64,000 nt of DNA from Erythrobacter sp. (GTDB taxonomy: Bacteria > Pseudomonadota > Alphaproteobacteria > Sphingomonadales > Sphingomonadaceae). The DNA is taken from contig PNJY01000001.1 in the NCBI GenBank assembly GCA_013822125.1, positions 16,700 through 80,699 on the forward strand, in the 5' to 3' direction. Position 1 is the first letter of the stretch. Each line of letters begins with the position of its first letter. A model generated the notes under the pieces. The model was not told the DNA's origin, made no database searches, and saw only the letters and a list, made by a program, of their open reading frames with translations. Positions 1,966 to 36,983 of this stretch are shown here, in pieces. A program made the translations under genes and the position numbers.

Positions 1966-4900
1966 TCAAGTGCTCTTGCCGCGTGCGATCTTGATGGCGC
2001 GGCTATAGGTGTCATAGCTTGAGCGCAGCGCGGTTTCGGAACGCAACAGGCCGTAATGCTGGCGGATCATGTCTTCACTGGTCTGGAGTGCAAATGCAGC
2101 TTCCTGCACTCTGTCGTTCGACGTCGAGTTGTTGACGATGTCTGACGCTTTGAGAACCCTGTGCACGTAAGGATTCAGGAGCACGACACCTGGAAAGCCA
2201 GTTCGCGTCAGGGGGTTCCACGCGATGTGGCGTGCGCCGAACTTGCGAAAGGCTTCGTACCAGGTGAGTGACGTCATCGCCTTGCCTCTCTTGGTCAGGA
2301 ACGCATTTTCGCATGTCCCATCATCAAGAAGCGGGCGATGGATGAAGAACCATTCATCGAGCAGCTTTGTGAGGAAGGGTTCTGTAATTGTCAGATCGTA
2401 GTCGAGGCGGTGCCCAACAACCCCGAAAAGCCCGCAGTTCTTCCAGTTCTTGAACTTGCGATAGCAAACGCAAATCTTCCACAAGCCATTTTGCTTGAAG
2501 ATCTCCGGTTTGTCGCCCTTGAACTTCAAGTTGACCAGGTTCTTCGGGCGGAAACCCGTGACTATCGAGAGATGGGACATGACGATGTTGCGTATGTCGG
2601 TTGCGAGGAAGCGACCTGACCGCTCATCGCGCACCCGCGATTCAGCCTCGAACAGGAGGCTGAGGTAATTCGCCACCGGCTCCTCGCTTTCGATCAGCGA
2701 TGCGGCTCCCAACATCGCATCGCGGACCGTCGGCGTATCCTCTTCGATAAATTGGGTAATCTGCTCAGCCGCCTCCCGGCTGATTGCAATAAAGGCTCGC
2801 CAGTCGCGCTTCGCGAGATCAACGTCTTCCTGTGACAGCAGTGGTCCGCCGCTGCGACCGCTGAATGCGAGAAGCCCGCTGAAGCGCTCTGCAGATGCGG
2901 TCTGGGCGAGCGGTTCGAGCTTTTCGGCAAGTTCAGGGTGCTGGGTAAGATAGCCGGTCTCGGGATGGGTGAGAGACTTGATATGGTGAGCCACACCTCG
3001 AAGTCGCGACGAGAATAACTCGCCTCTTTTGCCACCAGTCAGTTCCACTTCGCTGAGATGGGCTGCCTCGAATGCGAAGTAACGAACAAAGAGTCCTGGA
3101 ACTACCAACCATACCATGGTCGCCTTGGAGGCATCGAGACCGAGGCCTGAGTTGGGACCATCTGAGCAAGGCGCAACGAGAAATCGCACGATCTTGTCGA
3201 TTTCGCGGCGCTTGATCTCAGTCGTAGTCTCCTCGCGCCAAATTCCGCTTTTCGGTCGCTTCAGTGGAGCAACAAACCTGGCAGTCTTGTAATGAAAATA
3301 CGCACGCAATTCCTCATGCCACGAATCAGGCAGTTCCGCGCCCGGCAAGCGGTAAGCGTCAGAGCGCCCGGCATTGCTGATGCGGGCAAAGTCGGTGCCA
3401 TCTCGTGCCAGGTGCTCGATCTTCGCAACGGCAGCCCTGATCTCCGGTTCTGAAAGGTAGCGAACTTCACGCGGAAGAAGCCGCTGCCTCGAAAAAGAAA
3501 CTTCGTACCAGTACGAGGTGACGGTCCCGGACGAGGCTGGAAGCCAGCCCCTACGCGCCAGCGCACAGAGCTTACCTTGGGGTAGCCCGAAATGCTCTTC
3601 GATCCTGGCCACGACGGGCACCGAATTGATCCCCACTTTCCCACCTGCAACCCAGTTCCTGATCGTTCCCCACGAACAACCCGCGATCTGGGCAAGGCTC
3701 TGGCAGGACAGGCCCTTCGACTTCATCAGCGCCGCGAGCTGTCCTGCGAAACTCGCAGACGGGTCGACCCGGGCGGAAATCTCATCGTAGATCGCCTTGA
3801 TACGATCCAACCGAGCCGAAACATTTCGCCGACTGCTGTCATTGTCGTAGGAGGCCCGCACCGCACTACGAAGCGCTGGAAAGCGCTCGTCTGAAAAGAC
3901 CTCTGCGGCCGGATCCTCAGTCGTGCAACCAGACTGCGCCAGGATTTTGTAGAAGGCGGAGCGGTGTGCTGCGACATGCTGATCCGGATCGGAAGCGCCA
4001 TTAAGTGTCGCTCTGCGGCGCTCACGACTGGTGAGCTCGATCAGAAGGTTTGCCAGAAGGTCAGCGCCATAGTTGTGGCCCGGCACGGCGATGCCGCGGC
4101 GCTTGGCGATCTCCGTGACAGTCCGACGGCATTGCGGGAGATCAGCTACCGAAGAAGCGACCCCTGCAAGCTCGGCCAGCTCGCCCCAGTCAATTGCACC
4201 GTGCCGATGCGAACTGCCGGGGATTTTCGCGCCAGGCACGTCGAACATCGAGACCGTCGCACAAAAAGAAGCGATCTGCCGTTCGCGATCGTCCGGTGTG
4301 GGGCAGGTCCTCACATGCGGGCTATTGGCAAGAATGGCCCGGCCGTCTGCCAGCGCCGCCTGAATAACCTGCTTGAATTTTGCGTTCTGTTTCGCGGCAC
4401 TGACCGTGACGCCGAATGATGCCTTGAACCACTGGAGTGACACACCCTGGCCGTACCGGCCAATCGTCAGCTGAAGGGAGAGGGCCGCGTAAGCGGCCGA
4501 CACGGGATCCTTGAGCCGAACGCCTTGCGACAGGTGGCACGGAAAGGTGACAAACACCTGCAGGACGTTCTCGATAAACGTGCGCGCCTCGGTACCGGGT
4601 GCGACTTCGCGCATGTTGATGTCGCATTGCCGAGTGAGTTCCTCACAACTGATCATGCCGTTGTGGGCGAGAAAAGGCCGCCCGGTGTCGATCTGCTCGA
4701 CTGCGAAGGAAGCGAAACGCGCTACGACCGCGTTCGAGGCGTTACTGGCAGCGCGCCGAGCCTCCTGCAGGGCCGCGGCGTGCTCTTCTTGGGCATTCCA
4801 ACCGCCACGCGGAATGGCGAGCCGGAGATCAGCGCTGCCCCGGAGCGGACGATCGTCGTTGGCAGGCAAGACTAGCGACAATGCTGTCGAGGTCGCAACG

Positions 4901-6098: not shown

Positions 6099-6596
6099 TT
6101 GATAATGTTTACCGACGTGAATTTCGAGGCTACGCAGCGCTTTGTGCTGGCGATCGGAATCTTGTTGACCGTTGACGTGACTGGGCTCGGCGTCGGCAAC
6201 CCGAGGGGGGTTGTGTTTACAGTTGCACCGGCTGGCGAGGAGCTTGGATTTGAGAGGGCTGCCGCTAACCAAGGCAAAGACGTTATCGTTCTTACGTTCG
6301 AATTGGGGAAAGAGGAGGAAGGTCCCAAGAATATTGCCGTTTTCGAGGAGCGTAATGGTCAATTACGGGTTTGGCCAAGATGTGCGTTTTGCGAGACAGA
6401 TGACGGCCGACACTTCATTATCGATTATGACGATCGCATTGGCTTTGTTCTGTGGGATGAGAAGATCATGACGGTCAACAATTTGCCGCCGGGCTTTTGC
6501 CTAGAGAATGCTGAGCGCGGTTCTGCATTTCTGAAGGAATTTGCGACCGGCTACATCGGAACGATGCATCGTAACGGTTTTCAGTGCTCCCGATGA
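6099..6596 (+). CDS. hypothetical protein
   Basis: 165-aa ORF with a GGAGG RBS; lower GC; no motif recognised. Confidence 0.6.
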   Translation: MIMFTDVNFEATQRFVLAIGILLTVDVTGLGVGNPRGVVFTVAPAGEELGFERAAANQGKDVIVLTFELGKEEEGPKNIAVFEERNGQLRVWPRCAFCETDDGRHFIIDYDDRIGFVLWDEKIMTVNNLPPGFCLENAERGSAFLKEFATGYIGTMHRNGFQCSR

Positions 6597-8386
6597 GAGC
6601 AGCGAGAAGAGTCGCAATCAATATAAGCTTTCACTCGAAAGAAAAAGTCGGACCCCGCCGAATCGCTAATCGCGAGTAGTGGACTGGTTATCTCGTCCCA
6701 TCGGCATTTATGGTGTTCGCGAAGCTCCTGGTAGCACGCAAGCACATGGTTCGCCGATGCCAGCGCCCAGCAGTGCAGTTCGTCTCTCAGAGCGTCGAGC
6801 TTTTCTTCTGTAAGGCCGGCGCAATTGAAAGCATGAGCACCGAGCGCGGGGGCGGTGTGTATGGCGATCATCCGGGACCCGAGGATGGGCTTCGGAAGCT
6901 TGGTTCGCGTGATCATCTTCGGGCCGAAGTAATCGACAATCCGGATGCGCCCCGCGCGGTCAGCTACGGGCTTTCGAGCGGTGCTGCGTTTGTAGCCGCT
7001 TTTCAGGGCCTGCGCGATCTCGCTGTCACCGTCGACTGATGCAGCGCCGGTTCCATCCATGTCGTCGAGCACGAGCAAGCCATGTGTCTGGTCAAGCAGC
7101 CTGACCATGCCGGCAGCACGAAGTTGTCCGGCCAGTGTGCCATTGATGGCAACTCTCGCAATCGCCTCACCAAGTTCCGACTTGCCGCTACCTGCGGGCC
7201 CGACCGCGAGCAGGATCGGCAGGGCGTCGAAGATCTGGTGGACGTGAGTCATAGCGACGAAGGTTGCTGCAAGTGCATAGGCTCTTTCGTCGGGTAGCCA
7301 GACGCGCGATCGCAGGTGCTTCTCGAGCGTCTCCAGGAGATCGGACAGTTCCCGGAAGGGGCGAGGTCCACGGCGCTTGCGCCACTCGACGAACTGTTGA
7401 ATGGAACCGAACGACCAAGTGCCCGATGTGCTTGCTGCCGGCAGGCCTTTGATGCGCGTGCCGTCCGAGAGAGCCAGAACACGCTCCGAAGATGCTGTCC
7501 CACAGGGTGCTGGAAGGGGTTCGGCACTGAGCAGGGCCCCGTCGGATCTCACGACCAGGGTGCGATAGCGGTGCACGATCTTGCCCAGCCTATCGTCGAC
7601 ATGACGCTGCTCCACCGCGACCGGGTAATAAAGGTTTCCGCAAGCAAAGCCGCCCGAGACGTCGATGGGCGCAGCTTCGAATATCCCGAGATCCACCGGC
7701 TGCCGGCCCGGCTCTTCGGATTCGATGACTAGCTGAATCGGCCGGGCGCTTCCGAGAAGAGTATCCCAGGGCGGGGCCTGAAAGGAGCGGACCATGTCCG
7801 TGAAGCTTTGGAAAGGCGCAGGCGTGCGAATTTGCAGGATTTCGCGTACTGTAAGCGGCGCAATTTCAGCGATGAAATCGGCCGCACCGTCCCCGTCGAT
7901 CAGCAGTACTTGCCCGAACGACGACCAGTGCTGTCCCGAGCGCCATTCCGCAGGCCATTCGCCCCACTGGGAGCGGGAGATGAAGACAACATCCTCATCT
8001 GTCTGTCCATAGGTCTGCCATGCGAGCCACAGATCGAGCACATCGGCTGCGACGACCGCAATCTTTTCGCCATTCCCCAGCCTGTACTCCGTGCAAGGTC
8101 CGGGGCCCCAGCCTTTGGGGTGCTGAGGGTTTGTCGTTATCCCTTGCAGATTGCGGTATGCATATCTCCCGATCGGCAGGCCGTCATCGCTCAGCAAAGG
8201 ATAGGAGAGGGCATCGCGCACCTCCAAGCCGTCATGGCGCGATACATAGGCCTGCTTGAGGCCCAGGTGCAGCCGCTCGATGGTCCCGCCATGGAGGCCG
8301 AGCACCCTGAGCTTGTCCATTGCCGCCTGCGATTGGCGCAGAGCGCGCTTCTGCCGTCCGAGGTTCTCTGGTCCGGCTGACTTCAC
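6581..8386 (-). CDS. putative primase-helicase/replication protein (N-terminal TOPRIM-like region, C-terminal P-loop ATPase)
   Basis: Walker A GPAGSGKS, Walker B LLVLDD and LKSGYKR motif as in phage/satellite primase-associated ATPases; N-terminal YPL...G..IG..YR and AVVAADVLDL. Confidence 0.6.
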   Translation of the reverse strand: MKSAGPENLGRQKRALRQSQAAMDKLRVLGLHGGTIERLHLGLKQAYVSRHDGLEVRDALSYPLLSDDGLPIGRYAYRNLQGITTNPQHPKGWGPGPCTEYRLGNGEKIAVVAADVLDLWLAWQTYGQTDEDVVFISRSQWGEWPAEWRSGQHWSSFGQVLLIDGDGAADFIAEIAPLTVREILQIRTPAPFQSFTDMVRSFQAPPWDTLLGSARPIQLVIESEEPGRQPVDLGIFEAAPIDVSGGFACGNLYYPVAVEQRHVDDRLGKIVHRYRTLVVRSDGALLSAEPLPAPCGTASSERVLALSDGTRIKGLPAASTSGTWSFGSIQQFVEWRKRRGPRPFRELSDLLETLEKHLRSRVWLPDERAYALAATFVAMTHVHQIFDALPILLAVGPAGSGKSELGEAIARVAINGTLAGQLRAAGMVRLLDQTHGLLVLDDMDGTGAASVDGDSEIAQALKSGYKRSTARKPVADRAGRIRIVDYFGPKMITRTKLPKPILGSRMIAIHTAPALGAHAFNCAGLTEEKLDALRDELHCWALASANHVLACYQELREHHKCRWDEITSPLLAISDSAGSDFFFRVKAYIDCDSSRCSHREH

Positions 8387-11485: not shown

Positions 11486-13684
11486 ATGCCAGAATCAGTT
11501 GATAACCCCGCGGCGGGACCCGCCGATGCGGCGCTGGCGAGCTTCGTCTTGCTGGCGCAGTTTCTTGGTATCCCGGCAGACGCCCAGCAGATCCACCATG
11601 ATCGCGGGCAGGGCGACCAGCCATACTCCTTCGACGACCTGATCCGCGTTGCCAAGAAGCTCGGCCTGATGGCTCGCCGCAAGGAAGCGGCAGTCGCGGA
11701 ACTCTCGAAACTGCCCCTGCCCGCCTTGGTGAAACTGTCGGGCGACGACACGGCGATCCTGCTCAAGATCGACGACAGCGGCGAGACCGGCACGCGTTAC
11801 ATGGTGCTGCGCAGCGATAGCCAGCGCCCCGAGGTGTGGAGCGAGGCCGACGTCTCCGCGCGTTTTGCGCTGAAGAGCGACAAGGTCGAACTGCTGCTGA
11901 TGACAAGCCGCGAGCATATCGCGGGGCAGAAGCGCGCCTTCGATATCTCTTGGTTCATCCCCGCGCTGGTCAAATACCGCAGGCCACTTCGGGACGTGCT
12001 GATCGGCAGTTTCTTCCTTCAGCTGGTCGGCCTTGCCTCGCCGATCTTCTTCCAGCTGGTGATCGACAAGGTGCTGGTCAATCAGACGATCAGCACGCTC
12101 GAGGTGCTGGCGATCGGCCTCACAGCGATCCTGATCTTCGAGACTCTGCTGTCGGCGCTGCGCAACTGGCTGTTCGCGCACACCTCTAACCGGGTCGATG
12201 CCGAGCTGTCGGCAGCGCTGTTCCGGCACCTTGTCGCTCTGCCATTGTCTTACTTTGAGGCGCGTCGTGTGGGCGACAGCGTAGCGCGGGTGCGCGAGCT
12301 CGAGAGCATCCGCAACTTCCTCACCTCCAACGCGGTGACGGTGGTGATCGACCTGTTCTTCACCATCGTCTTTTTCGCCGTGATGTACCTCTATTCACCG
12401 CTTCTGACGCTGATCGTGGCGCTGACGATCCCGGTCTATGTCGCAATCTCGGGGCTCGTCACACCGCCTTTGCGCGCGCGGCTCGACGAGAAGTTCAAGC
12501 GCGGGGCGGAGAACCAGTCCTTCCTCGTCGAAACCGTCACCGGCATCGGCACGCTCAAGGCGATGGCGGTGGAGCCGCGGATGCGCGACCGGTGGGAGAA
12601 GCAGTTCGCCGGCTATATCCAGACGGGATGGGACGTCACCGTGCTGTCCAACTGGGGCAGCCACCTCATCCAGCTGGTCTCGAAGCTGTCGACGGTCGCA
12701 ATCCTGTTCTTTGGCGCCAAAGCGGTCATTGCCGGCGATCTCAGCGTCGGGAGCCTCGTTGCCTTCAACATGCTGTCGGGCCGTGTCGCGCAGCCCATCC
12801 TGCGCCTGTCGCAGCTGTGGCAGGATTTCCAGCAGGTGCGCATTTCGGTCGACCGGCTGGGCGATATCCTCAACTCGCCCGCCGAGCCCGAGCATAATCC
12901 CAACCGCGCCACTCTGCCGCCGATCAAGGGGCGGGTCGAGTTCGACAAGGTCCGCTTCCGCTATCGCCCCGATGCGCCCGAGGCGCTGCGCGGGATCAGC
13001 CTCGACATCGCGCCGGGGGAAATGATCGGGATTGTCGGCCCTTCGGGATCGGGCAAGTCGACGCTGACCAAGCTGGTGCAGCGACTCTACGTGCCCGAAC
13101 AGGGTCGGGTGCTGGTCGACGGGACGGATCTCGCGCTGGTCGATCCCGCATGGCTGCGGCGGCAGGTGGGGGTGGTGCTGCAGGAAAATATCCTGTTCAA
13201 CCGCACCGTGCGCGAAAACATCGCGCTCGCCAATCCGACCCTGCCGATGGACCGGGTGATCGCCGCGGCCGAACTGGCCGGCGCGCACGAATTCATCCTC
13301 GGCCTTGCGCAAGGCTATGACACGGTCATCGAGGAGCGCGGCGCGAACCTTTCGGGCGGGCAGCGCCAGCGCCTTGCCATCGCCCGCGCGCTGATCACCG
13401 ATCCGCGCATCCTGATCCTCGACGAGGCGACCAGCGCCCTCGATGCCGAGAGCGAGGAGATCATCCAGAACAACCTCGCCCGGATCGCGGAAGGGCGCAC
13501 CGTGCTGATCATCGCCCACCGCCTGTCCGCGGTGCGTCCGTGCGACCGGATCATCACCGTCGAGGCGGGCGAGATCACCGAGATCGGCTCGCACCACGAA
13601 CTGCTGCGCGCCGGCGGGCGCTATGCCCAGCTCCACGCCAAGCAGACCGGCTATCGTCCCGATGCCGAGGTGGTGCCGGCATGA
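11486..13684 (+). CDS. hlyB: type I secretion ABC transporter (HlyB family, C39-like N-domain)
   Basis: Walker A GPSGSGKS, LSGGQRQR signature, ILILDEATSALD; ABC transmembrane domain; N-terminal C39-like domain with no catalytic Cys seen. Confidence 0.95.
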   Translation: MPESVDNPAAGPADAALASFVLLAQFLGIPADAQQIHHDRGQGDQPYSFDDLIRVAKKLGLMARRKEAAVAELSKLPLPALVKLSGDDTAILLKIDDSGETGTRYMVLRSDSQRPEVWSEADVSARFALKSDKVELLLMTSREHIAGQKRAFDISWFIPALVKYRRPLRDVLIGSFFLQLVGLASPIFFQLVIDKVLVNQTISTLEVLAIGLTAILIFETLLSALRNWLFAHTSNRVDAELSAALFRHLVALPLSYFEARRVGDSVARVRELESIRNFLTSNAVTVVIDLFFTIVFFAVMYLYSPLLTLIVALTIPVYVAISGLVTPPLRARLDEKFKRGAENQSFLVETVTGIGTLKAMAVEPRMRDRWEKQFAGYIQTGWDVTVLSNWGSHLIQLVSKLSTVAILFFGAKAVIAGDLSVGSLVAFNMLSGRVAQPILRLSQLWQDFQQVRISVDRLGDILNSPAEPEHNPNRATLPPIKGRVEFDKVRFRYRPDAPEALRGISLDIAPGEMIGIVGPSGSGKSTLTKLVQRLYVPEQGRVLVDGTDLALVDPAWLRRQVGVVLQENILFNRTVRENIALANPTLPMDRVIAAAELAGAHEFILGLAQGYDTVIEERGANLSGGQRQRLAIARALITDPRILILDEATSALDAESEEIIQNNLARIAEGRTVLIIAHRLSAVRPCDRIITVEAGEITEIGSHHELLRAGGRYAQLHAKQTGYRPDAEVVPA

Positions 13685-15177
13685 GCCTGCTCGCCGAACG
13701 CTTCCCCACGCTCGCGCGGCATTGGCAGGTGCTGCGCGAGAGCTGGCGCTGGCAGAACGAGGCGGACAAGGCCTTCAAGCCCAAGGCCGAGCATGAATTC
13801 CTGCCCGCCGCGCTCGAAATCATGGAAAAGCCGCCGAGCCCGGGGCTCAGGTGGCTGATGCTGATGACCTGCGGGCTGATGGTGCTGGCGCTGATCTGGG
13901 CGATTATCGGCCGCGTCGATGTGGTCGCGACCGCGGCGGGCAAGACCGTGCCGGGCGAGAACGTCAAGATCGTGCAGCCGATCGAAATCGGTGCGGTGCG
14001 TGCGATCCATGTCCGCAATGGCCAATTCGTGAAGAAGGGCGAGCTGCTGATCGAGCTCGACCCGACGCTCGCCACAGCAGACGAGGCGCAGAGCACCCAG
14101 TCGCTCCGTTCGGCGCAGATCATCAAGGCGCGCAACGATGCCCTCCTTGCCCACCTGCGCGGCGCGCCCGCCCGGTTCGTGGCGCCGGAGAGGACATCCC
14201 CTGATATCGTCGCCACCGAAGAAGCCTTCGTCCGCAATGCGGTCGCGCAATACGAGGCGCAGAGAAGCGCGCTCGTCCAGCAGCGGGCCGAAAGTGAAGC
14301 CGACCTTGCAGCCACGAAGGCCGAAATCGCCAAGCTGGAGGAAGCGCTCCCCTATATCGACAAGCAGCTTAATGCACGGGCAGAGCTAGCAAAGAAGGGC
14401 TTCTTTGCGAACCTCAAGCTCCTCGAGTACGAACAGCTGCGCGCCGAGCATGTTCGCAACATCGAAGTGCAGCGCGCCAACTTCGCGCGGTCCGAAGCTT
14501 CGATCCGGCGGCTCGATGCCGAATTGCTCGCCCTGCGCGCCGGGTTCGGGCGCACCGCGGTGACCGACTTTGCGGAGGCCGAGAGCGAGGCGGGGCTTGC
14601 CAGCGAGCAACTGCGCAAGGCGGCGAGGATGCGGCAATATCAGGAGCTGCGCGCGCCGGTCGATGGCGTGGTGCAGCAGCTGGCCGTGACGACCGTTGGC
14701 GGGATCGTCCAGCCCGCTCAGCCGCTGATGGTGATCGTGCCCTGTTCTGGCGGCGGGACAGACGCGGCGAGCTGCAACGGCGGCGTAACGGTTGAAGCCT
14801 TCGTGCAGAACAAGGATATTGGCTTTGTGAAGGTTGGCCAACGGGTGGCGGTAAAGCTCGAAGCGTTCAACTTCACGGATTACGGCCTAATCGAGGGCAA
14901 GGTCACCACCATCAGCCGCGATGCGATCGACCAGAGCCAGCAGCCAGTGGGCAGCGTGCGCGACGAGAATGGACGCCCGATCCAGCCCGGCCTCGTCTAT
15001 GCCGCGAAGGTCGAGCTTGCCTGCGGGCGGCAAAACTTGGCGCGCCATCCGCTGTGCGACCGGGTGCAGCCCGGCATGGCGGTGCAGGCTGAGATCAAGA
15101 CCGGGCGTCGGCGGATCATCCAGTACCTGCTTTCGCCGATCAGCCAGGCGCTGAGCGAGGCGGGGCGGGAGAAGTGA
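13681..15177 (+). CDS. hlyD: type I secretion periplasmic adaptor (HlyD family)
   Basis: EFLPAALEI, single TM, VRNGQFVKKGELLIELD, APVDGVVQQL, PGM.VQAEIKTGRRRIIQYLLSP; ATGA overlap with hlyB. Confidence 0.95.
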   Translation: MSLLAERFPTLARHWQVLRESWRWQNEADKAFKPKAEHEFLPAALEIMEKPPSPGLRWLMLMTCGLMVLALIWAIIGRVDVVATAAGKTVPGENVKIVQPIEIGAVRAIHVRNGQFVKKGELLIELDPTLATADEAQSTQSLRSAQIIKARNDALLAHLRGAPARFVAPERTSPDIVATEEAFVRNAVAQYEAQRSALVQQRAESEADLAATKAEIAKLEEALPYIDKQLNARAELAKKGFFANLKLLEYEQLRAEHVRNIEVQRANFARSEASIRRLDAELLALRAGFGRTAVTDFAEAESEAGLASEQLRKAARMRQYQELRAPVDGVVQQLAVTTVGGIVQPAQPLMVIVPCSGGGTDAASCNGGVTVEAFVQNKDIGFVKVGQRVAVKLEAFNFTDYGLIEGKVTTISRDAIDQSQQPVGSVRDENGRPIQPGLVYAAKVELACGRQNLARHPLCDRVQPGMAVQAEIKTGRRRIIQYLLSPISQALSEAGREK

Positions 15178-15604
15178 TCAGCTTCTCTGGGGCACCGCAG
15201 GCCGCCAACCAGCTCATAATTGCCTGATAGGTGCCCCTTGCCGTTAGACATTGGATTGTAGCGATAAAGCTCTTGCATCTGTGACCGAAATGCGCAGGAT
15301 GAAGGGTGAATGAGAGGGGCGCGCCGTTGTTACTCATGAATTTGAGCAATTCTGTGTTCTGCGCGAAAGCGCTGCGCCGTAAGCCATTCGCAATCCGGTG
15401 TCGTGACCCTTTAGCTTCTGCCGCATTCGAGCGCTTTCGTGCCCAGCCGACTGTGCGAGTTCCAGTTCTGCATGGTTCACTCTCTGTTCTGGATAGAAAT
15501 ACGAGGCTTCTTCTTCCTGTAGAAGGTGGCTCCAAGCTGCTTCGATTCTTCGCGCAGCGCCGAGGTGCGGCAGCAATCCGCAATTGTTATTCGGAGGCGT
15601 GTCA

Positions 15605-16327
15605 ATGATGCGACGATCGCTCCTTCAGGTACTTGGAACTGGGTTACTTAGCCTTACGTTGCCGGCTTGCTCATCTGCCAAGGACACGGCTCCAGATTAC
15701 CGCTATCGTCTCACGGTCGAGGTCGAGACTCACGAGGGCCTAAGATCGGGGGCGAGCGTGATCGAAGTCCGGCAAAACATCGGCCGATCCGGCAGCAGCC
15801 CGCTCCATTCGCAAATATACCGCCATGCCAAGGGCGAAGCGGTGGCCGTCGATCTGCCGGGAGGCAAGACGCTGTTTGCGCTGTTGCGTTCCGACAGTGA
15901 CGTTGAATGGGCGGCTCAAGTCATGCATCTGCTCGCGCCCCAGATCCAAGGCGAGACCAGCCAAGATTCGTTTGACAATGTGCTGCTGATCAAGGGCAAG
16001 GTCGAAGTTCCCCGCACTTTCCCGCGCGTCGCGTGGATACCAACGCGCTCAGCCTACCCGATGATGGTGGTTTTCGGTGATCCCACCGATCCGACTAGCG
16101 TGACTAAAGTTGATCCAGATGATCTTGCGGCGACGTTTGGCGAGGGAGTGAAACTGAAGCGCGTTACTGTCGAGCTGACCGACGATCCTGTGAGCACCGG
16201 GATTGAGAAGCGGTTGGCCTGGTTGAGCAGCTATCCTGAACCGAGTTTGCGGCCGGGACACGACCTTAACGACTTTAGTTTGCCAGCCACACTTCGGCAC
16301 GGCGACTTTCGGCGAGGACAAAATTAA
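15605..16327 (+). CDS. lipoprotein of unknown function (candidate immunity protein)
   Basis: RR-containing signal peptide with lipobox-like LPAC; GGAGG RBS; TAATG overlap with the giant RTX gene. Confidence 0.75.
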   Translation: MMRRSLLQVLGTGLLSLTLPACSSAKDTAPDYRYRLTVEVETHEGLRSGASVIEVRQNIGRSGSSPLHSQIYRHAKGEAVAVDLPGGKTLFALLRSDSDVEWAAQVMHLLAPQIQGETSQDSFDNVLLIKGKVEVPRTFPRVAWIPTRSAYPMMVVFGDPTDPTSVTKVDPDDLAATFGEGVKLKRVTVELTDDPVSTGIEKRLAWLSSYPEPSLRPGHDLNDFSLPATLRHGDFRRGQN

Positions 16328-19300
16328 TGTTGAGCCCTGACGTCTTCTTATCGCTGCTAGCTCTAGATGCATACAATCGAGGTTACGGGCGTGGCGTATT
16401 CGCCAATGGTAGTGCGAACGATGACAGCGAAGCCGGCCGAAAGATTGGCAACGCGACGATCTTAAACGTCGACTTGCCTGCTGGTTCAGAGGCAGTAGGC
16501 TTTTACGCAATCGCATACGAATTGGACGGTGCAAAAATAATCTCTTACCGTGGAACGAATTTCGAATTCAATTCGCTCAACGAGTTTCTGAGCAGTCCAG
16601 CAATATTGGATATCTACAATGGCTGGGGTATAGGAGGTGGCTACGCTCCGTCTAGTCAGGCTCAATTAGCGATAAATTTTTATGAAAGTGTAGCAGGCGG
16701 TCTGTCCATTTATGATACAAATGGAGGTACAACTACACTTGTCGGCCATTCCCTCGGAGGTGGGCTAGCTGGATTTGTAGGTGCTTTAGGAAAAGTTGAT
16801 ACTTTTGCTTATGACCATATGCCTTTTATGAAGGCAGCCGAGGCGCAGGCTCTTTCGGTCGCACTTTCACGCGCTCTTGATGCTGCAAGAGCGCAGTTTG
16901 ACTCAAGTCTAGGTCTTTCATCGCTAGTGGCACCAGCTTTGGCCGGTCCCGGCAGTCCTCTATATGATGTACTGCAAGCTTTCACTGATGAATTTGTAGA
17001 TCAATGGAGGAGAGTCCGGCCAAGTGCGGAAACAATCAAAGGAATTTACGTTGAGGGAGAGCTTGTTGTCCCGATTCGTGCACTTGATAGTGCTATAAAC
17101 GGGATCGATGGATCGCTTCTAGCTCCTCTTCTTGTCTACTTAAGAGGAGCACTTTCAGCGCTCGACGTTGAAGGCAATTATTCAGAAGACATTGTAGTTA
17201 AAGATCCTGTCAGTAACAGAGGTATCGAGTTCGGCGGCGGCTTTGCTGATCTCGTTGGCCGGCATTCGATATCTCTTCTGACGATTTTGCAGTTCGGTGA
17301 GAAGCAATGGTCGGCTGAGCGCGGGCAAGAAGGATGGAAAAATTCTGCTAAATTTATCTTCGATAAAATCAGTGATGATGGAATTGGCTCTTCAGTAGGA
17401 CTTAGGCAGGGGCAGACGGGAGGGGCGTCTGAAGGCGATCAACTTAGCTCAGTCGTGGCATACTCCGCCATCAATGAAGGCACCCGTCTTTTTGGCGATA
17501 CTGGAATCCGCGCGCTGTTCAACGATGCTGACGACCTCGGACGACTTCTCGGCCGCACGTACAATGTCCTTAGTGAAGAAACCACCAACCTAATTGGGGG
17601 TCTCATCGCTGAGTTCTCGGGTTTGCTTGCGAAAAATCAGGTTCTTTCTGCTTCTTCTCCGCAGGCACTTAGTGGCGTCATTTCAGTCGGCGAGTCCTCG
17701 CCCTATCTAACAATCCGAACAGATCGAGATTATTGGTCGACATTCGGCGATAATCCGACTTTCTTTTCGAGACAGAGTAGCCTTCTGATTTCGAACATTT
17801 TCAAAGAGAATCTTTCTGGGGCGGCGCAATCGGAACTGAGATCCTGGCTGAACGAAGCTGCCTCAAAGAAGGGATTCCAAATCACGCCCCTTACGACGCT
17901 AGCAGAATATATAGATTATGTTTCCTTTACGTTCGCTGGAGATTCCCTGTTTAGGGGCAACGATGATCCGAGTTACAACGGATTCCAATTGTTTGTTGGG
18001 CAAGATGGAAACCAATCAGTCGGTCCTGAAGCAGGCTTTAAGAATACCTTATTGGAAGGTAGCGATATCTTCATCGGGGCAAATGGCCGGAACCATTTGC
18101 TAGGGCTCGGTGGTCATGATGCGCTCATCGGGGGCAGAGGGGTCGACGAACTTGATGGCGGTGCAGGCGACGACCTAATTGTCGGCGGAAGAGGTCCAGA
18201 CACCCTTAAAGGCGGATCCGGCAAAGACATCATCCATGCAGGTGACTTTGACGAAGCTGAGGACAGCGCGGGCGATACTCTCACGGGCGGAACTGGAGAC
18301 GACATATTCTATATTGGAAACGGAGACCGAATTACCGATATTGATCGCGGCGACACGGTTTTCCTCAGAGGCAAGAGGCTCAGTGGAGGGAAGGAGACAA
18401 AACCTGGTTCCCGTATTTTTCTCGATGAGCAGGGTGGCAGGTTCGTTTGGGCGGCGGATGGTACGCTCACATATTCGATCAATCCGACCATTTCGATCGA
18501 GGGCTTTCGCAACGGCTATGGGGGTATCAGGCTGATCGAGGCCGAGGACGATGAGGAAGATGATGATGGTGGCAATGATGACGATGATGGCGGTCGTCCT
18601 GATTTCGATCCGGCTGAGCGCCTTCGCGATCCGCTGATTATCGATCTTGACGGTGATCGCAACGTCATTTCCGGTCGCGACAGCGTCGCTGCCTACTTCG
18701 ATATCGACAACGACGGCTTCTCCGAGCGCGTCTCTTGGGCTCGAGCAGGCGATGGTTTCCTCGTTCGCGATCTCGACGGCAACGGCTTGATCGAAACCGG
18801 TTCGGAGTTGTTCGGCACCGGGGCCGTGGACTCGAGCGCTGCGCAGCTCCAGCCATTCGGCGAAGACGGTTTTGCTGAGCTTGCGTTGCTCGACAGCAAT
18901 TTCGATGGCGCTATCACCGCCGCGGACACGCTGTTCTCGCAGCTCCGGGTTTGGATCGATGCCAATCTTGATGCGAGGACCGACGCTGGCGAGTTGGTAA
19001 CGCTGGAATCCCTGGGCATCGTTTCGATCAGCCTCAGCACTTTCGATTCTGACCACGTTGCCATCACTAACGATGCCTCGGTGATCACACGCGCGTCGAC
19101 CGTCGGCTTCGCAAATGGCTCCACGCGCACGATTTACGATGCCTATCTATCGGTCGACCAGTTTGACGCACGCGAACTCGCGGGCGATGTCACTGTCGAC
19201 GAGCGCATTGCTGATCTTCCCTTCCTGCTTGGGTCCGGCAACGTGTCAGACCTCGACATCGCGATGTCGCGCGACGCTGGTCTTGCCGAGCTGGTGCGCG

Positions 19301-25300: not shown

Positions 25301-28300
25301 GTGCTGACGATGCAGTTACGCCGATTGCCCCCGTCAACATCGCTCCTGTGGTCAATAATGTCACTCTGGAGGGTAACGAGGACGCTACCCTGTTGATTGA
25401 TGCCGCGACATTGCTGGCAGCAGCAACCGATCCCAACGGCGACCAATTGCGGATTGCTAACGTCGGCGCGGCATTCAAAGGCAAGGTATGGATCGGTGTC
25501 GACGGTAATGTCCGCTTCCTGCCGGATATCGACTTCGCCGGCGAGGCCGGGTTTGATTTCGTCATCAGTGACGGCAATGGCGGGCTGACTACAGCACGAG
25601 CTCTGGTTTCTGTCCGCGGATCTAACGATGCCCCTCGTATCGCGGTTGAAGGCCGCACGTTCACGACCTTTGAGGATCGCCCGATCGATTGGTTCTTGCC
25701 GACCGGGGCTATTACCGATCCGGACGGTGATCCTTTGGTCTTTGAGGCAAGGCTGTCGTCCGGCGAGCCATTGCCCGATTGGCTGACATTTGACGGCAAT
25801 CGGTTTACCGGCACACCACCTTCGGACTTCAATGGTCTTCTGGCTATCGTCCTGACGGCTTCCGATGGAAACGTTACGACGTCATCCAATCTCACGATCG
25901 AAGTCTTGCCGATCAATGACGCCCCGCGTCAAGTGAGCGCGCTGGCCGATCAGATATTCCGGCCGGGCGAGGCCTTTGCCTTTACGCTGCCGACAAACAC
26001 GTTCCTCGATGTCGAGGGAGATCCGCTCTCGTTTGACATCGTTTCAAGCGACGGCAGTCTTCTACCCGATTGGCTCACGATCGACGGGCTGACAATCTCC
26101 GGCACAATCCCTGACGGTCAGGTCGCGCCAGTCAACCTCGCGTTGCGTGCCAGCGATGGCGCGTCGACGAGCATTGCCACCTTCGCAATCAACCCGGCAC
26201 CAAATGCCGCTCCGACGGTTGGTACCCAGCTCGGGCCGGTGTCAGGAACGGAGGATCAGGCGTTCAGCTTCACCTTGCCGGACAACGTCTTCGTCGATGC
26301 GGATCAGGACAGTCTTGCGATTACAGCTGTTCTTTCTGACGGCTCCCCATTGCCATCCTGGCTCAGCTTTGAGAACGCAACATTCTCGGGCAGTCCGCCG
26401 CAAGACTTCAATGGCGTCCTCGCCATCCGCCTGTCCGCAACCGACGGGCGCGCCTCAGTGTCTCAGAACTTCGTATTGACCATCAACCCGGTCAACGATG
26501 CGCCGGTGCTCGTGGTGCCGCTCGCCGACGCGGAAAGCCCAGAAGACACGGGCTTCTCGGTCTCGATCCCCACGGAAACCTTCGGCGATGTCGATGGTGA
26601 CGCCTTGACGTTCAGCGCGACGCTTGCGGGCGGGGCACCGCTGTTCGATTGGCTGAGGCTCGAGGGAAGCACGATCGTCGGTACCCCGCCGCAGGACTTC
26701 AACGGTGACATCGACATTGTCGTTTTGGCCAGCGATGGCTTGCTGTCGGCTTCCGATACCTTCCGCCTCACTATCTCGTCAACCAACGATGCCCCGGTGG
26801 TGCTGGTGCCGCTCCCCGACTTCACCGTCGCCGAAGATCAGCCCATCATGCTTGATCGTCTCACCGCAGGCTTCGGGGATGACGACGGTGATGCGCTAAC
26901 CTTCACGCTGACAGGTGCCAATGGTGCGGCGCTGCCCACTTGGCTGAGCCTTGCAAATGGCCAGCTTGTCGGGACTCCGCCAGCAAACCTCAATGGCGTA
27001 TTCGACCTTGAATTGAGGGCGAGCGATGGCGCGCAGAGCGTCGTTGATGCTTTCCGGCTCACGTTGTCGCCCGTCAACGACGCGCCGGTACTGGCTCAGC
27101 CCCTCACTGATCAGACCGCGACCGGCATTGGCCCGGTTTCGATCACCATTCCGGCAGGTGCTTTCACCGATCCTGATGGTGACGCGCTAACTTACACCGC
27201 GCGTCTGGCCGATGGTTCAGAGCTGCCGCAATGGCTAGCGTTCAACGCAGCGAGCCGGACCTTCACCGGTACGGCGCCCAATGCCAATGCCGCGCTCAAT
27301 GTCCGTCTGACGGCGAGCGACGGTGCCTTGAGCGCATCGGACGATTTCCTGCTGACCGTGACGGCGCAGGCCGAAAACGGGGGCAGCAGCACCGGCTTCC
27401 GGCAGGTAGGCCTCAACAGCTGGTTCAACCCTTCCTGGGGCGGCGGCTACAATGTCACCTTTGAATACCAGGTGCAGCCCGACGCGATCGTCGATGGCCG
27501 CCTGAAGGCCTGGGACATTCTTGCGAGTTACACGGGTCCGGGCACCATCACCAATGGCTGGGTCAGCGGTTTTCCAGGAACGACGACCTTCCAGATTGTC
27601 CCGGGCGGAGCACGATTCACCAACACCGGCCAGAGCTATCAGCCAAGTCTCGGCGAAGGCACGCGTTTCCAGGTCTCGGTGCAGGTCGATGGTGCCGCAT
27701 ACAACCCGGCGCATTTCGGGCTGTCGATCTTCGACCGCGACCCGGCGTTCAACCTGGCGGACGATAGCGACACCCTGCTCACCGTCGCCCCGACCAGCGT
27801 ATGGGCTGGCGGGCTCAGTCAGAACCTCACGCTGCGCAACACCGGCGCGACAGCGATCGATGGCTGGCAGGTTGTGCTTGATGTGCCGACGGGCGTGACG
27901 TTGAACATTACCAGCGTCTGGGGGGCTACTGCCACCACGCTCACCAGCGGCGACATCATGTTCCGTGCTCTCTCCAGCAATGAGAGCGTAGCGACAGGTG
28001 CGGAAACCAGCTTCGGCTTCAACGCGAGCTACTCCGGCGTCAGCACCTTGCCGCTCAGCCGCGGAATGTTCAGCTTCACCGATGGCGACGCCCGCCAGTT
28101 CGATGCAGTGATCGCCTCGCTTACCGGCACGGGCCTCACCAGCAATTGGCGTTACGGCACCGCTGCGGTCGATGCGCTCACCGCGCCGACGACGGCCGAC
28201 ACCCGCCTGTTTGGCGGCGTGGGGGCGGACACGATCAATGGCAATGCCGGGGCCGACTGGATCGCGGGCGGATCGGGCGACGATGTGCTCTATGGCAATG

Positions 28301-31002: not shown

Positions 31003-31995
31003 TCAGGGAAGGGCGGGGAACTTTCGCCGACGGCTGTGAACGAGTTCCCGAAGAATTTCAGGCTGAAGTACTTCGACCGAGGTGCCCCAAGCGTAAAGAT
31101 GCCAGCACATTTCAAGCAGGCCGGAGGCGCGAAACCTTACTAGCAGAGATCCGTCACGTTCCTCCTCGACAACCTGTGTCGGGTGAAAAACAAAACGGCG
31201 TGCATGCGCGGCAGCCTCCGGAGAAAAGCGCCAGACCACATCGCCATATTCAGCGGCATTCTCGTATGAACCGAAACCCCGTTTGGCGTGCTCGTGAATA
31301 TCGAAACCGGCATCGAACTCGAAGCTCTCCGGCAGCACCTCAGCCTCGGTGATCTCCTCGACCCGGTAGTGCTGGAGCGGGGCAGACGCTGGCTTTGCAG
31401 TGTCCCTTGCGACAAGATAGCGCCGCACTCCCAGGAGCAGACCATGCGGGGCTACGATACGGTCGACGGGCTTCGCCTGACCCCGCTTGCGATAAGGGAA
31501 GCGCAACAAGAAAGGCCCCTTGAGCGCCTCATAGATAGCCGTGTCCACTTCGCGAATGGCGGCTGGTTTCGGGCCCGGCCGAGCAGCATGGCCGAGGGCT
31601 TCCAGGAGAGCTTCCTCGTCGACCGCCAGCCTTGTGCCTTTCTCCGGCGGAACCAGAGCTCTGACCTTCTGCGCCAGGCTGCGCGTCAGCGCCGCTTCCT
31701 GCAGCATGCCTGCCTGCTCAAGCTGGGCGATGCCGGTCGAAAGCGCGGCAAGCTCTTCGGATGAGGGCGACAGCAGGGTAGCCACATGCCGCGCGGGGAT
31801 GTGCCAGCGCTTCCTGCGATCCTCGCCCTCACTGGTTTCCGTTTGAGGAAAGGCGGCCTCGAGCGCCTCGGTCATGCGCTGCGCCGTTCGATAGACGCAG
31901 CCGAATTCCTCGATGATCTCCTCGAGGGTAACGCCGCTGCGGCGCGTGGCCATCATCGCGAGCTTCAAGAGCTCCTGTGCCTTGGCAAAGGACAT
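31003..31995 (-). CDS. WYL-domain transcriptional regulator (HTH-WYL-WCX)
   Basis: N-terminal wHTH (TLEEIIEEFGCVYRTAQR), PHGLLLG.RRYLVA..., YRVEEI WYL core, C-terminal WGTSVEVLQP. Confidence 0.92.
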   Translation of the reverse strand: MSFAKAQELLKLAMMATRRSGVTLEEIIEEFGCVYRTAQRMTEALEAAFPQTETSEGEDRRKRWHIPARHVATLLSPSSEELAALSTGIAQLEQAGMLQEAALTRSLAQKVRALVPPEKGTRLAVDEEALLEALGHAARPGPKPAAIREVDTAIYEALKGPFLLRFPYRKRGQAKPVDRIVAPHGLLLGVRRYLVARDTAKPASAPLQHYRVEEITEAEVLPESFEFDAGFDIHEHAKRGFGSYENAAEYGDVVWRFSPEAAAHARRFVFHPTQVVEEERDGSLLVRFRASGLLEMCWHLYAWGTSVEVLQPEILRELVHSRRRKFPALP

Positions 31996-32005
31996 CGAAA
32001 ATCTC

Positions 32006-32024
32006 CATGACAGCTTTTGTCATG
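32006..32024. promoter_or_regulatory. palindromic operator CATGACA-N5-TGTCATG
   Basis: Perfect 7-bp inverted repeat in the 63-bp gap between the divergent WYL and helicase genes. Confidence 0.7.
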
Positions 32025-32058
32025 CGGTTCGGCTATAGCTTAGGCAAGGGAGCTATGC

Positions 32059-35000: not shown

Positions 35001-35394
35001 CCTGGTCGGCTCGGTCTATTGCGACCGGAACGGCAACGAGCGCGTCATTGCTCACGGCGACATTCTTGTGGTTGCTCCCTACAATGCGCAGGTCAATGCG
35101 CTCAGGGCCGCCTTGCCGCTCGAGGTGCCCGTCGGAACCGTCGACAAGTTCCAGGGACAGGAGGCGCCGATCTGCCTTGTGTCGATGACGACGTCGAGCG
35201 GCGAGGAATTGCCTCGCGACATTGCGTTCTTGTTCTCGCTCAACCGGATCAATGTGGCGGTTTCTCGGGCGCAGGCGGCGGCGATTGTGTTCGCAAGCCC
35301 ATCATTACTCGAAACACCGTGCCGGACGGTAGAGGACATGGCGCTGGTGAATGTCCTTTGCCTTCTTCGCGAGCTTTCATCGGGCGATCCCTGA
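32059..35394 (+). CDS. TM0106-family RecB-like nuclease / RNase H-like / superfamily 1 helicase fusion
   Basis: PD-(D/E)xK-like TDFL..YEVVDTK; FYDIEGDP/IYHY RNase H-like region; GPPGTGKT, VDEAGQ, TVDKFQGQEA, NRINVAVSRA. Confidence 0.92.
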   Translation: MRFVEGKLRYSASDLMRFKGCRHATTLDLRLLEIGDIRPKDDSAEAELLQRQGDEHELAFLESLRAEGRVVTEIPKDGITLEEAVALTLEAMARGADIIFQGALLDGEWGGYTDFLERVERASSLGGWSYEVVDTKLKRKPDPKHVLQLCLYSDLLAKVQGSAPESAHLQLGDGSRYSVRLADVSAYARHARAMLEGFVTERPATRAEPVSSCGLCRWSDHCHAQWEQEDSLALVAGITRSQRQKLEAAGITTMTALAGRTERVPKMAAETQRKLVAQALLQSARRNGGAPSFELRVPEPGKGFGLLPEPAEGDVFYDIEGDPYFPGGLEYLHGVWFMEDGQWQFQAFWAHDREAEGKAMSDLLGFLVERMRRYPKAHIYHYANYEIAALRRLTAAHRTGEAAMDQLQRERRFVDLFKVVGGGLIASEKGYSIKDLEAFYMEKRAADVATAGASVVFYEEWRQTGEQRLLDEIHDYNRTDCVSTQLLMDWLVKDVRPTGMPWPVLGDVPAAGPLSNVAAEDEELDLLRQRLEPVRARLGERVATLLLDLSQFHKREDKPAYWAIFDRLAQESEELLDDLECIQGLVAITGPVQVTAKSSERTYRFPEQETKLRAGKTPCIKPAAMPEEVQLQSINHDERTLILRRSHVKGPLPDRLDLLPPRPLQNKILRESLMAVIEEIIAASGQVTAIEQLLTRAIPAFVDSARPGSIVRQDGELVEETSRAIAAMDCSTLGIQGPPGTGKTFVSAASINDLVQSGKRVAVASNSHKAIGNLLKAVAERAQDGGKAISIVQKVSDGDDADDHPMIIAVTDNNAPEISRADVVGSTAWHFARYDTPAFDYLFVDEAGQVSLANILAMGRCARNIVLVGDPMQLPQPLQGSHPGESGLSCLEYLIDGHRVIPAERGIFLPISRRMHPNICRFISQAVYEGRLDSDAAAAAQSLVSSAGDNLVGAQFRPVEHTGRSQVAPEEIAAIRATIEALVGSVYCDRNGNERVIAHGDILVVAPYNAQVNALRAALPLEVPVGTVDKFQGQEAPICLVSMTTSSGEELPRDIAFLFSLNRINVAVSRAQAAAIVFASPSLLETPCRTVEDMALVNVLCLLRELSSGDP

Positions 35395-36080: not shown

Positions 36081-36102
36081 ATCGTGCTTGCTGCCAGCGT
36101 CC

Positions 36103-36945: not shown

Positions 36946-36983
36946 GGCGACGCAAACGCATGGTCTGAGGAAGAGGAGGTGGT

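Follow-up and report, generated by a model that had tools for sequence, protein, structure and literature searches.

What is the function of a giant RTX (repeats-in-toxin) protein whose gene starts on the last base of the stop codon of a small lipoprotein gene? This arrangement is found in a 64,000-nucleotide stretch of an Erythrobacter sp. genome (contig PNJY01000001.1), and we refer to this whole stretch as the window. An initial annotation of the window described a pair of type I secretion system (T1SS) exporter genes (hlyBD), a lipoprotein gene, a TAATG overlap, and a gene for an RTX giant carrying SYRGT and GHSLGG motifs, all of which are present (Table 1). The N-terminal domain of the giant protein, hereafter called the head, was thought to be an antibacterial lipase, and the lipoprotein its immunity partner. 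After comparing ~160 related loci, we favor a reading to which we assign a rough probability of 55%. The two genes would encode a polymorphic, T1SS-exported, lipase-type toxin and its cognate neutralizing lipoprotein, accompanied elsewhere by orphan immunity genes and diversified by recombinational cassette exchange.

The head resembles class-3 lipases

A homolog search with the head retrieved 133 proteins, most of which are 860–1000 amino acids long and consist of a head followed by RTX repeats. Among 43 aligned homologs that share 29–51% identity, G140, H141, S142, L143, G144, and G145 are invariant, as are R75, G76, T77, E245, and H313. The residue D163 is nearly invariant and, together with Glu245, is a candidate for the acid residue of the active site. 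Because S142, H141, G140, R75, G76, T77, H313, and E245 are invariant in the 43 homologs, the SYRGT and GHSLGG motifs are not chance occurrences.

Matches to known families and structures are more distant. Sequence searches with the head in Pfam, NCBIfam, PADLOC, and the PDB yielded lipase matches below threshold only. The head scores 16.5 bits (E 0.0084) against the Pfam model PF01764 (Lipase_3), which is below the gathering threshold of 22. The threshold is passed by the homolog P0140 (25.9 bits) and by some other homologs, and most head homologs carry a precomputed PF26363 annotation. An AlphaFold2 model of the head was obtained with a predicted local distance difference test score (pLDDT) of 85.1 and a predicted template-modeling score (pTM) of 0.88. 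When this model was compared with PDB structures by using Foldseek, the sole match with E < 1e-3 was 9cys_A, from the lipase effector/immunity complex of Enterobacter cloacae’s type VI secretion system (T6SS). The match (E 5.4e-4, probability 1.00) is remote, the identity being 16% and the TM-score 0.45 relative to the target. In a search with a profile of the head alignment, the first non-RTX match was likewise to 7ubz/9cys (5e-6, over 47 residues only), and fungal class-3 lipases of the 1dt3 type came next (3e-5).

A class-3 lipase fold is indicated by the lipase and esterase matches of the AlphaFold2 model in Foldseek, by the profile matches, and by the invariance of S142, H313, E245, R75, G76, and T77. 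As modeled, the head is a class-3-lipase-like serine hydrolase that is probably a distant relative of a known antibacterial lipase. The DNA encoding it (window 16400–18000) is G+C-poor, with a GC content of 0.44–0.53. At third codon positions the GC content (GC3) is 0.43, as compared to 0.64 in the lipoprotein gene and 0.65 in the remainder of the giant gene. This drop is the largest among 29 full loci compared, and for this reason the window head looks like a recently imported module.

The lipoprotein represents a large family of stand-alone proteins

The lipoprotein begins with MMRRSLLQVLGTGLLSLTLPAC, and a GGAGG Shine-Dalgarno sequence lies 7 nucleotides (nt) upstream of the start codon. 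A signal peptide is followed by a lipobox whose cysteine, Cys22 (15668–15670), is invariant in 25 homologs. The core of the protein (residues 30–206; 15692–16222) is strongly conserved and includes the segments PDYRYRLTVEVETPEGLKTGSSVIEV, RGEAVAVDLP, and AYPMLVTFGD..DPTSV..VDPDDLAATFGEG. Unlike the core, the final ~35 residues are not conserved.

No match to the lipoprotein was obtained in Pfam, NCBIfam, PADLOC, or PDB sequences. Its AlphaFold2 model (pLDDT 82.5) consists mostly of beta strands, and a Foldseek comparison of this model with the PDB gave only noise (best E 0.029, TM ≤0.2, LolA/RseB-like) and no match to chain B of 9cys. A word-indexed search with the lipoprotein returned 1,331 clusters at 90% identity. 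In an exhaustive profile search, the number of clusters at 50% identity was 4,980, of which 704 fell below 1e-30. Nearly all of the family clusters are stand-alone proteins of 220–270 amino acids.

Linkage between lipoprotein and head is asymmetric

A lipoprotein-seeded scan that admitted one genome per species returned 80 loci. These are mostly from Sphingomonadales (Erythrobacter, Porphyrobacter, Novosphingobium, Sphingomonas, and others), and several are labeled as Alphaproteobacteria, Pseudomonadota, or Proteobacteria only. When all open reading frames (ORFs) located up to 5 kb from the lipoprotein gene were clustered, the head emerged as the sole recurrent neighbor, being located directly downstream on the same strand in 28 of the 80 loci. 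No other neighbor is common to more than six loci, and there is no conserved housekeeping context.

Linkage was also examined from the other direction. A head-seeded metagenome scan provided 50 heads with the N terminus present and with room upstream. A lipoprotein gene is located directly upstream of 43 of these (86%), even where lipoprotein identity has fallen to 28–35%, and the two reading frames usually overlap or nearly abut. The pairing is not due to chance, because 43 of 50 heads that were found independently show the same lipoprotein-then-head order. One pair (locus L103) resides on a contig of 33–38% GC, and so the arrangement is not confined to high-GC Sphingomonadales.

Two further side observations concern individual loci. 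Among the heads that lack an upstream lipoprotein gene, two are preceded by a gene for a HlyC-family RTX-toxin acyltransferase (PF02794, 39.5 and 40.1 bits; L095:1204–1836 and L116:5039–5713). Heads of this subgroup may be parts of acylated RTX proteins with different biology. A locus labeled Acidovorax delafieldii CCH4-A2 (L048) has the same downstream ORF as the Blastomonas loci L045 and L051, and the synonymous divergence (dS) of its lipoprotein gene from the Blastomonas/Sphingomonas copies in L045 and L043 is ~0.37–0.39. This points to a mislabeled or contaminating contig or to a recent transfer.

To establish what comes after each intact lipoprotein gene, we conducted a census of ~90 genes (88–91) with hidden Markov models (HMMs). 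A full head follows in 10 cases and a head cut by the contig end in three more. A truncated head, or stub, follows 23 lipoprotein genes, another lipoprotein gene follows 10, and nothing related follows 42. Fragmentary lipoprotein copies number only ~6. Thus, a head almost always occurs with a lipoprotein, whereas a lipoprotein usually occurs without a head.

The initial annotation had asked whether the two genes co-vary across genomes. They do when linkage is followed from head to lipoprotein, but not in the reverse direction. It also regarded lipoproteins without lipase-headed neighbors as evidence that would refute the idea, and such lipoproteins make up ~85% of intact copies (75 of 88–91). 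The idea is not refuted, because these orphans often keep the 5′ end of a head gene and are intact and under selection, which is how orphan immunity genes look.

Orphan lipoprotein genes are maintained by selection

In the stubs, the reading frame stays open from head residue 1 to residue ~20–350. Their end points have a mode at residues 78–85, just past the sequence ISYRGTNF, and the 10 kb downstream do not contain the rest of the head. Two explanations for the stubs were considered and rejected. A single ancient truncation does not account for all of them, since stub ends span HMM positions 20–352, which indicates several events notwithstanding the clear mode. Carriage of the lipoprotein-plus-stub units on a mobile element was rejected because no integrase, transposase, or other gene recurs (none in more than six of the 80 loci).

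The orphan lipoprotein genes are not decaying; they are intact and evolve under purifying selection. Ratios of nonsynonymous to synonymous substitution (dN/dS) for the closest orphan–orphan pairs are 0.09–0.36, and those for three stub-linked paralogs of Porphyrobacter TH134 are 0.18–0.20. Several genomes carry more than one copy: four in Porphyrobacter TH134, all with different tails, two in E. longus, and two in Erythrobacter PB2.004. In full loci, two or three lipoprotein genes can stand in tandem before the head (L026, L054, L055, L058–L060, L062, L067, L072, and L074). Together, the retention of orphans, the selection acting on them, their multiple copies, and the tandem arrays argue against a role in serving a cis-encoded head alone.

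The TH134 units L009, L015, and L017 have ~150 nt of identical sequence in common past the stub end, beyond which translated frames resemble alphaproteobacterial REP-type repeats. Two of these three lipoprotein-plus-stub units are near contig ends, as expected of repeated DNA.

The lipoprotein tail and a head loop vary together

In 127 lipoprotein genes, 48 types of variable C-terminal tail were distinguished. Paralogs that are in tandem or in one genome nearly always differ in tail type, even when their cores are nearly identical. For example, similarity values for core and tail, respectively, are 0.94 and 0.00 in L023, 0.96 and 0.05 in L059, and 0.92 and −0.01 in L072. At the DNA level, paralogs are 93–100% identical across the core and ~30–45% identical, which is effectively random, at the tail.

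The region of divergence continues into the head gene. In the TH134 paralogs, the unalignable stretch comprises the tail and head codons 1 to ~60, after which nucleotide identity rises to 96–97% for 240 nt. The loci L007 and L026 present a mosaic of another kind, in that this cassette is 78–93% identical while the first two-thirds of the lipoprotein genes are only 43–77% identical. For 63 units, the similarity of tails is correlated with that of the head loop formed by residues 23–57 (r = 0.59). The correlation persists when the lipoprotein core is controlled for (partial Mantel r = 0.52; none of 2000 permutations as high). For comparison, tail versus core gives 0.37, and loop versus the conserved head arm gives 0.32. 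Particular tail/loop combinations are also shared between genera: by the window and L054; by L007, L026, and L074; by L012 and L035; by L013, L015, and L070; and by L033 and L039.

This pattern shows that tail and loop are passed on and swapped together, as a single cassette flanked by conserved arms. Such a pattern would be expected of the two halves of a specificity interface, although it is short of proof. A further step, which we offer tentatively and regard as doubtful, is that the lipoprotein-plus-stub units are a reservoir of exchangeable specificity cassettes, and that recombination with an expressed T1SS locus re-keys toxin and immunity together. The arms for this recombination would be the lipoprotein core and head codons 58–80, and the hypervariable segment between them would encode both halves of the interface. 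A reservoir of this kind, which would operate on a family of ~5,000 lipoprotein clusters, could be likened to a 5′-end mirror image of the orphan displacement in contact-dependent growth inhibition (CDI) and Rhs systems, or to cassette switching of the pilE/pilS type.

A proposed toxin/immunity mechanism

We propose that the locus is a two-gene polymorphic toxin/immunity module and that a type I secretion system of the HlyB/HlyD kind serves it. The toxin would be the RTX protein with its N-terminal class-3-lipase-like serine hydrolase, in which Ser142, His313, and either Glu245 or Asp163 are the likely catalytic residues and RGT the likely oxyanion motif. Its activity would most likely be that of a membrane-damaging phospholipase or esterase. 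The lipoprotein, translated from the same message by way of the TAATG overlap, would be exported and lipid-anchored and would bind and neutralize the head. Its beta-rich core could provide a common scaffold, with the ~35-residue tail and head loop 23–57 setting the match between lipoprotein and lipase. Cells without the toxin would keep the lipoprotein gene, often as several genes with different tails, as protection against the lipases of their neighbors. New tail-plus-loop cassettes would enter by homologous recombination between the lipoprotein core and head residues 58–80.

The initial proposal of a T1SS-exported lipase toxin with an immunity lipoprotein has thereby gained strong comparative support from the fold match, the linkage, the orphans, the tandem arrays, the purifying selection, and the covarying tail. 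The display of the lipase on a long stalk, which was part of that proposal, has not. The enzymatic activity and toxicity of the head, its binding and neutralization by the lipoprotein, its export route, its target organism, and the compartment in which the two proteins would meet are features that we infer from genome comparison.

Several observations weigh against this mechanism. The lipoprotein core is 55–70% identical within Erythrobacteraceae, where heads are 30–40% identical, and this is unusual conservation for an immunity protein. The seven heads without a lipoprotein form a lower-scoring subgroup. Tail and loop are encoded only ~60–170 nt apart, and therefore plain linkage accounts for part of their covariation. 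Because the head scores below the Lipase_3 threshold, the label “lipase” is derived from the modeled fold class and the motifs. The gene order, with immunity first and the toxin domain at the N terminus, is the reverse of that in classical polymorphic toxins. Finally, a T1SS releases its substrate outside the cell, and it is unexplained where the lipase would meet the envelope lipoprotein of the producer or of the target.

Alternative explanations

The alternative that survives best, an unlikely one in our judgment, is that the head is an ordinary secreted exolipase that serves to acquire nutrients or to attack algal or other eukaryotic surfaces. The lipoprotein would then be a foldase or activator, an outer-membrane tether, or a guard for the producer only. 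An N-terminal GHSLG lipase domain, C-terminal RTX repeats, and T1SS export constitute the family I.3 lipase layout, and 2z8x-type lipases were matched by way of the RTX part. The CBM_2 and cadherin-like domains of the window protein suggest binding to polysaccharide surfaces, and the sequence is found in phycosphere, freshwater, and drinking-water samples. The N-terminal end of a T1SS substrate is known to leave last, beside the envelope of the producer. In E. cloacae, the Tli lipoprotein also activates its lipase (PMC11470151). However, a dedicated helper should vanish with its client, whereas there are ~75 intact lipoprotein genes without an intact head, under purifying selection and present in two to four copies per genome with different tails. 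Polymorphic, recombining specificity segments are likewise unexpected of a foldase or tether, and family I.3 lipases are known to require no partner protein.

Quite improbable, to our minds, is a pair devoted to kin recognition or adhesion. Here the lipoprotein would be a surface-exposed receptor whose tail is recognized by the head loop, so that matching cells stick or exchange material, and the hydrolase would be secondary or serve in remodeling. Covariation of tail and loop, polymorphism in discrete types, several receptor-like copies per genome, and the adhesin-like body of the window protein are all in keeping with this possibility. Against it stand the catalytic-type Ser, His, and acid residues and the oxyanion motif, whose invariance in 43 of 43 heads argues for an enzyme under selection. 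Most heads are carried on short RTX proteins without adhesin domains, and the repeated loss of heads with retention of the lipoprotein fits defense better. In addition, surface exposure of the lipoprotein is only presumed.

A coincidental neighborhood, in which RTX-lipase genes tend to insert or survive downstream of a widespread envelope lipoprotein of unrelated function, would suit the many lipoprotein genes without an adjacent head, the very large family (~5,000 clusters at 50% identity), and the strongly conserved core, but it is made highly improbable by the lipoprotein directly upstream of 86% of heads with overlapping or abutting frames (down to 28–35% identity and in a genome of 33–38% GC), the lack of any other conserved neighbor or housekeeping context, the head stubs after 23 further lipoprotein copies, and the covariation of tail and loop.

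The body and C terminus of the giant protein

Beyond the head, the giant protein has the features of an RTX protein, including a HemolysinCabind match of 92.7 bits in five stretches and GGxGxDxU motif blocks at residues 602–654, 2925–2944, and 3963–4009. The HCBP_related and RTX segments extend to residue ~2950. No Pfam family was found in the final 800 residues (residues 4011–4811; window 28357–30759), and for a T1SS substrate, a region of this length past the last RTX block is unusually long. Residues 3915–4547 have counterparts of 50–58% identity in L026, L033, and L072, and the last ~260 residues are rich in Pro, Ser, and Glu. The C-terminal region presumably carries the T1SS secretion signal.

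RTX repeats come after every full head among the related loci. The long adhesin-like body is a minority form, and most head proteins are short RTX proteins without adhesin domains. Display on a long RTX/adhesin stalk, as suggested in the initial annotation, is thus not the general design, since most relatives consist of head and RTX repeats in ~860–1000 residues. In the window protein, the unusually long body with its cadherin-like, Ig (immunoglobulin)-like, and CBM_2 domains could hold the enzyme at the surface. T1SS substrates exit with the C terminus first. For this reason, the N-terminal head would be the cell-proximal end of a retained stalk, beside the producer’s own envelope, and not its tip. 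This position could be the reason why a producer needs a lipoprotein guard.

Exporter genes, transcription, and neighboring genes

The hlyBD genes adjoin the lipoprotein/head pair in the window and in L026, L054, L070, L083, and L104, and overlapping or abutting lipoprotein/head junctions are likewise found in related loci. Of these, L026 is a full locus from Erythrobacter longus DSM 6997, which can be cultivated. The hlyB product has a weak C39-like domain at its N terminus (Peptidase_C39, 21.9 bits). The hlyD ORF is open from 13540, and the start used in Table 1 follows the gene calling of identical contigs. The window ORFs that were scanned include no TolC-type gene and no T6SS structural gene; the head is instead fused to RTX repeats beside hlyBD.

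The spacer between hlyD and the lipoprotein gene is filled by an ORF of 100 codons (15306–15608) that overlaps the lipoprotein start (ATGA) and was called by one gene caller. This ORF is unsupported, as it has no Pfam match and no tblastn match in 80 related loci. In L026 and L054, the corresponding position is occupied by a second lipoprotein gene. No second copy was found when the window and this spacer were searched, and promoter and terminator scans of the locus were uninformative.

Two related contigs display variant arrangements. One environmental contig (L164) is 99.7% identical to the window around the lipoprotein and head, yet ~1.6 kb is missing (compare window 13169–14779). The gap takes away the hlyB 3′ end and the greater part of hlyD, which disrupts the exporter but spares the lipoprotein gene and the beginning of the giant gene. 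Either natural variation or misassembly could account for this contig. A Sphingomonas contig encoding the head homolog P0125 (L167) has a gene for a 268-residue lipoprotein that overlaps one for a 989-residue head–RTX protein. This short pair is flanked by a phage-type integrase gene with a Dam methylase gene and by an rve transposase gene, with no T1SS genes nearby.

Identical copies of the window locus are present in freshwater, drinking-water, marine, and phycosphere metagenomes. Small contigs from RNA-labeled runs cover both genes, with one spanning the junction (16285–16435), and a lake metatranscriptome covers 15842–16064 and 16687–16886. These data are weak evidence for transcription of both genes, because DNA carry-over is possible in RNA-labeled runs. 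Directly downstream of the giant gene is a defense-type island (window 31003–43359), whose genes are listed in Table 1 together with two large ORFs upstream of hlyB.

Table 1. Features of the Erythrobacter sp. locus and its surroundings, in window coordinates (aa, amino acids)
Feature	Position	Strand	Remarks
Two large upstream ORFs, 1019 aa and 601 aa	1966-5025, 6581-8386	-	Pfam: sub-threshold HTH_31 match only
hlyB-type T1SS ABC transporter gene, 732 aa	11486-13684	+	TIGR01846, 995 bits (cut-off 726); Pfam ABC_membrane, ABC_tran
hlyD-type T1SS membrane-fusion protein gene, 498 aa as called	13681-15177	+	TIGR01843, 345 bits (cut-off 209)
Spacer between hlyD and lipoprotein gene, 428 nt	15178-15604	+	No promoter-like site found
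Lipoprotein gene, 240 aa	15605-16327	+	Candidate immunity/specificity partner; lipobox, invariant Cys
Polymorphic lipoprotein tail, aa 207-240	16223-16324	+	Type YPEPSL...GDF; tail typing, covariation with head loop
TAATG stop/start overlap	16325-16329	+	TAA 16325-16327 and ATG 16327-16329, one base in common; read directly
Giant RTX protein gene, 4811 aa	16327-30762	+	ORF; Pfam HemolysinCabind, HCBP_related, Cadherin_5, Big_9, He_PIG, CBM_2; RTX motif map
Lipase-like head, aa 1-545	16327-17961	+	Alpha/beta-hydrolase part, then helical subdomain
Variable N-terminal head loop, aa 23-57	16393-16497	+	Covaries with lipoprotein tail; mosaic DNA identity profiles
Conserved head segment GFYAIAY..ISYRGTNF, aa 58-80	16498-16566	+	Right-hand arm of variable cassette; commonest stub end point
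SYRGT motif, aa 73-77	16543-16557	+	
GHSLGG motif, aa 140-145	16744-16761	+	Ser142 at 16750-16752
His313	17263-17265	+	Candidate catalytic residue
First RTX nonapeptide block, aa 600-660	18124-18306	+	Straight after head; GGxGxDxU motifs, HemolysinCabind
Adhesin-like array: Cadherin_5/Big_9/He_PIG repeats aa 3000-3680, CBM_2 aa 3822-3909	25324-28053	+	Pfam
Last RTX block (aa 3963-4010) and 800-aa C-terminal region	28213-30762	+	Motif map
WYL/WCX regulator gene	31003-31995	-	
MkoA-like SF1 helicase gene	32059-35394		With RNase_H_2 and PD-(D/E)XK domains
Two Tle1-like DUF2235 phospholipase genes	36984-38423, 39528-40655		Flanking Endonuclease_NS gene
Endonuclease_NS gene	38128-39513		
Two ThsB-like TIR genes	40758-41546, 41552-42709		
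SLOG cluster3 gene	42628-43359		

Comparison with known systems

In overall layout, the ~900-residue relatives of the head protein correspond to the T1SS lipases of family I.3, such as PML of Pseudomonas sp. MIS38 (PDB 2Z8X), LipA of Serratia, and TliA of P. fluorescens. These enzymes have an N-terminal GHSLG lipase, an RTX beta-roll, and export by an ABC (ATP-binding cassette) transporter, a membrane-fusion protein (MFP), and TolC. Among the PDB profile matches listed, those to these lipases are to the RTX portion, and none of these lipases is found among the 50 best fold matches to the head. To our knowledge, family I.3 lipases have neither a partner lipoprotein nor polymorphism.

Giant RTX adhesins such as LapA of Pseudomonas fluorescens and MpIBP of Marinomonas resemble the window protein in being very long T1SS substrates with Ig- or cadherin-like repeats, RTX blocks, and ligand-binding modules. 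The N-terminal domain of these adhesins stays at the producer’s envelope as a retention module, whereas the corresponding domain here is a predicted hydrolase. A retained adhesin of the LapA type was considered and rejected, since the LssB/LapB-type model TIGR03375 gave 578 bits, less than its cut-off of 693, and the HlyB model passes. LapG and LapD had no match among the window ORFs scanned.

The Cdz system of Caulobacter crescentus reportedly consists of small glycine-zipper peptides that are exported by a T1SS and act as a contact-dependent bacteriocin, with a membrane immunity protein. It offers an alphaproteobacterial precedent for T1SS-exported antibacterial proteins with an immunity gene, but it is without an enzyme domain, an RTX giant, or a lipoprotein. 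So far as we are aware, the role of T1SSs in bacterial antagonism has been known mainly from small bacteriocins. If our proposal is correct, then a widespread enzyme-toxin/immunity system would be added to type I secretion, and a function would be assigned to a large unannotated lipoprotein family (~5,000 clusters at 50% identity) that lacks a Pfam model. It would also provide a compact case of specificity, in which a ~35-residue tail and a ~35-residue loop are exchanged together, that can be easily tested by tail swapping. A topological question would be posed as well: Is it in the producer or in the target that a T1SS-exported lipase encounters an envelope lipoprotein? The outer membrane of Sphingomonadales contains glycosphingolipids instead of lipopolysaccharide. 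Since many of the genome-derived loci are from this order, the lipid target may be unusual.

The locus has parallels to polymorphic toxins and to the orphan immunity genes and orphan toxin/immunity modules known from CDI, Rhs, and T6SS systems (Zhang et al. 2012; PMC3482391). In both cases, immunity-like genes are more numerous than toxins, are found in arrays as well as in unrelated contexts, and remain intact under purifying selection, and remnants of toxin genes and recombination at conserved flanks are present. Recombination with stand-alone cassettes and orphan immunity genes, a feature of polymorphic toxins, is represented here by mosaic profiles, tail swapping, and orphan/stub modules. 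The polarity differs. Classical polymorphic toxins have a variable C-terminal toxin domain and a downstream immunity gene, and whole toxin domains with different activities are swapped. Here the putative toxin domain is N-terminal, the immunity-like gene is upstream, the enzyme type is constant, and a short tail/loop pair varies. Unlike in classical systems, what the orphans retain of the toxin gene is its 5′ end. No description of a T1SS lipase with an immunity lipoprotein was found in the literature searched, including the 2012 survey of polymorphic toxins (PMC3482391).

The closest counterpart is the T6SS pair Tle/Tli of E. cloacae (proposed Tle6 group; PDB 7UBZ, 9CYS; PMC11470151). The Tle enzyme uses a Ser-Glu-His triad and is neutralized by the lipoprotein Tli, an ankyrin-repeat protein (PMC11470151). 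Both systems have a class-3-like α/β-hydrolase with a GxSxG serine, a His, and an acid, which is Glu in Tle; Glu245 is invariant in the heads described here. In both, a lipoprotein partner is encoded beside the lipase. Homology to E. cloacae Tle and to Serratia Slp is suggested by the best PDB match obtained, yet this match is weak (Foldseek E 5.4e-4, TM 0.45 over the target; profile 5e-6 over 47 residues). There are also differences, in that the window ORFs scanned provide no T6SS, VgrG, or PAAR context and T1SS delivery is predicted. The partner is beta-rich, represents a new family without an ankyrin match, is encoded upstream, and has a polymorphic C-terminal tail. By analogy, the pair would work most like a T6SS Tle/Tli pair with orphan immunity genes, yet it falls outside that group.

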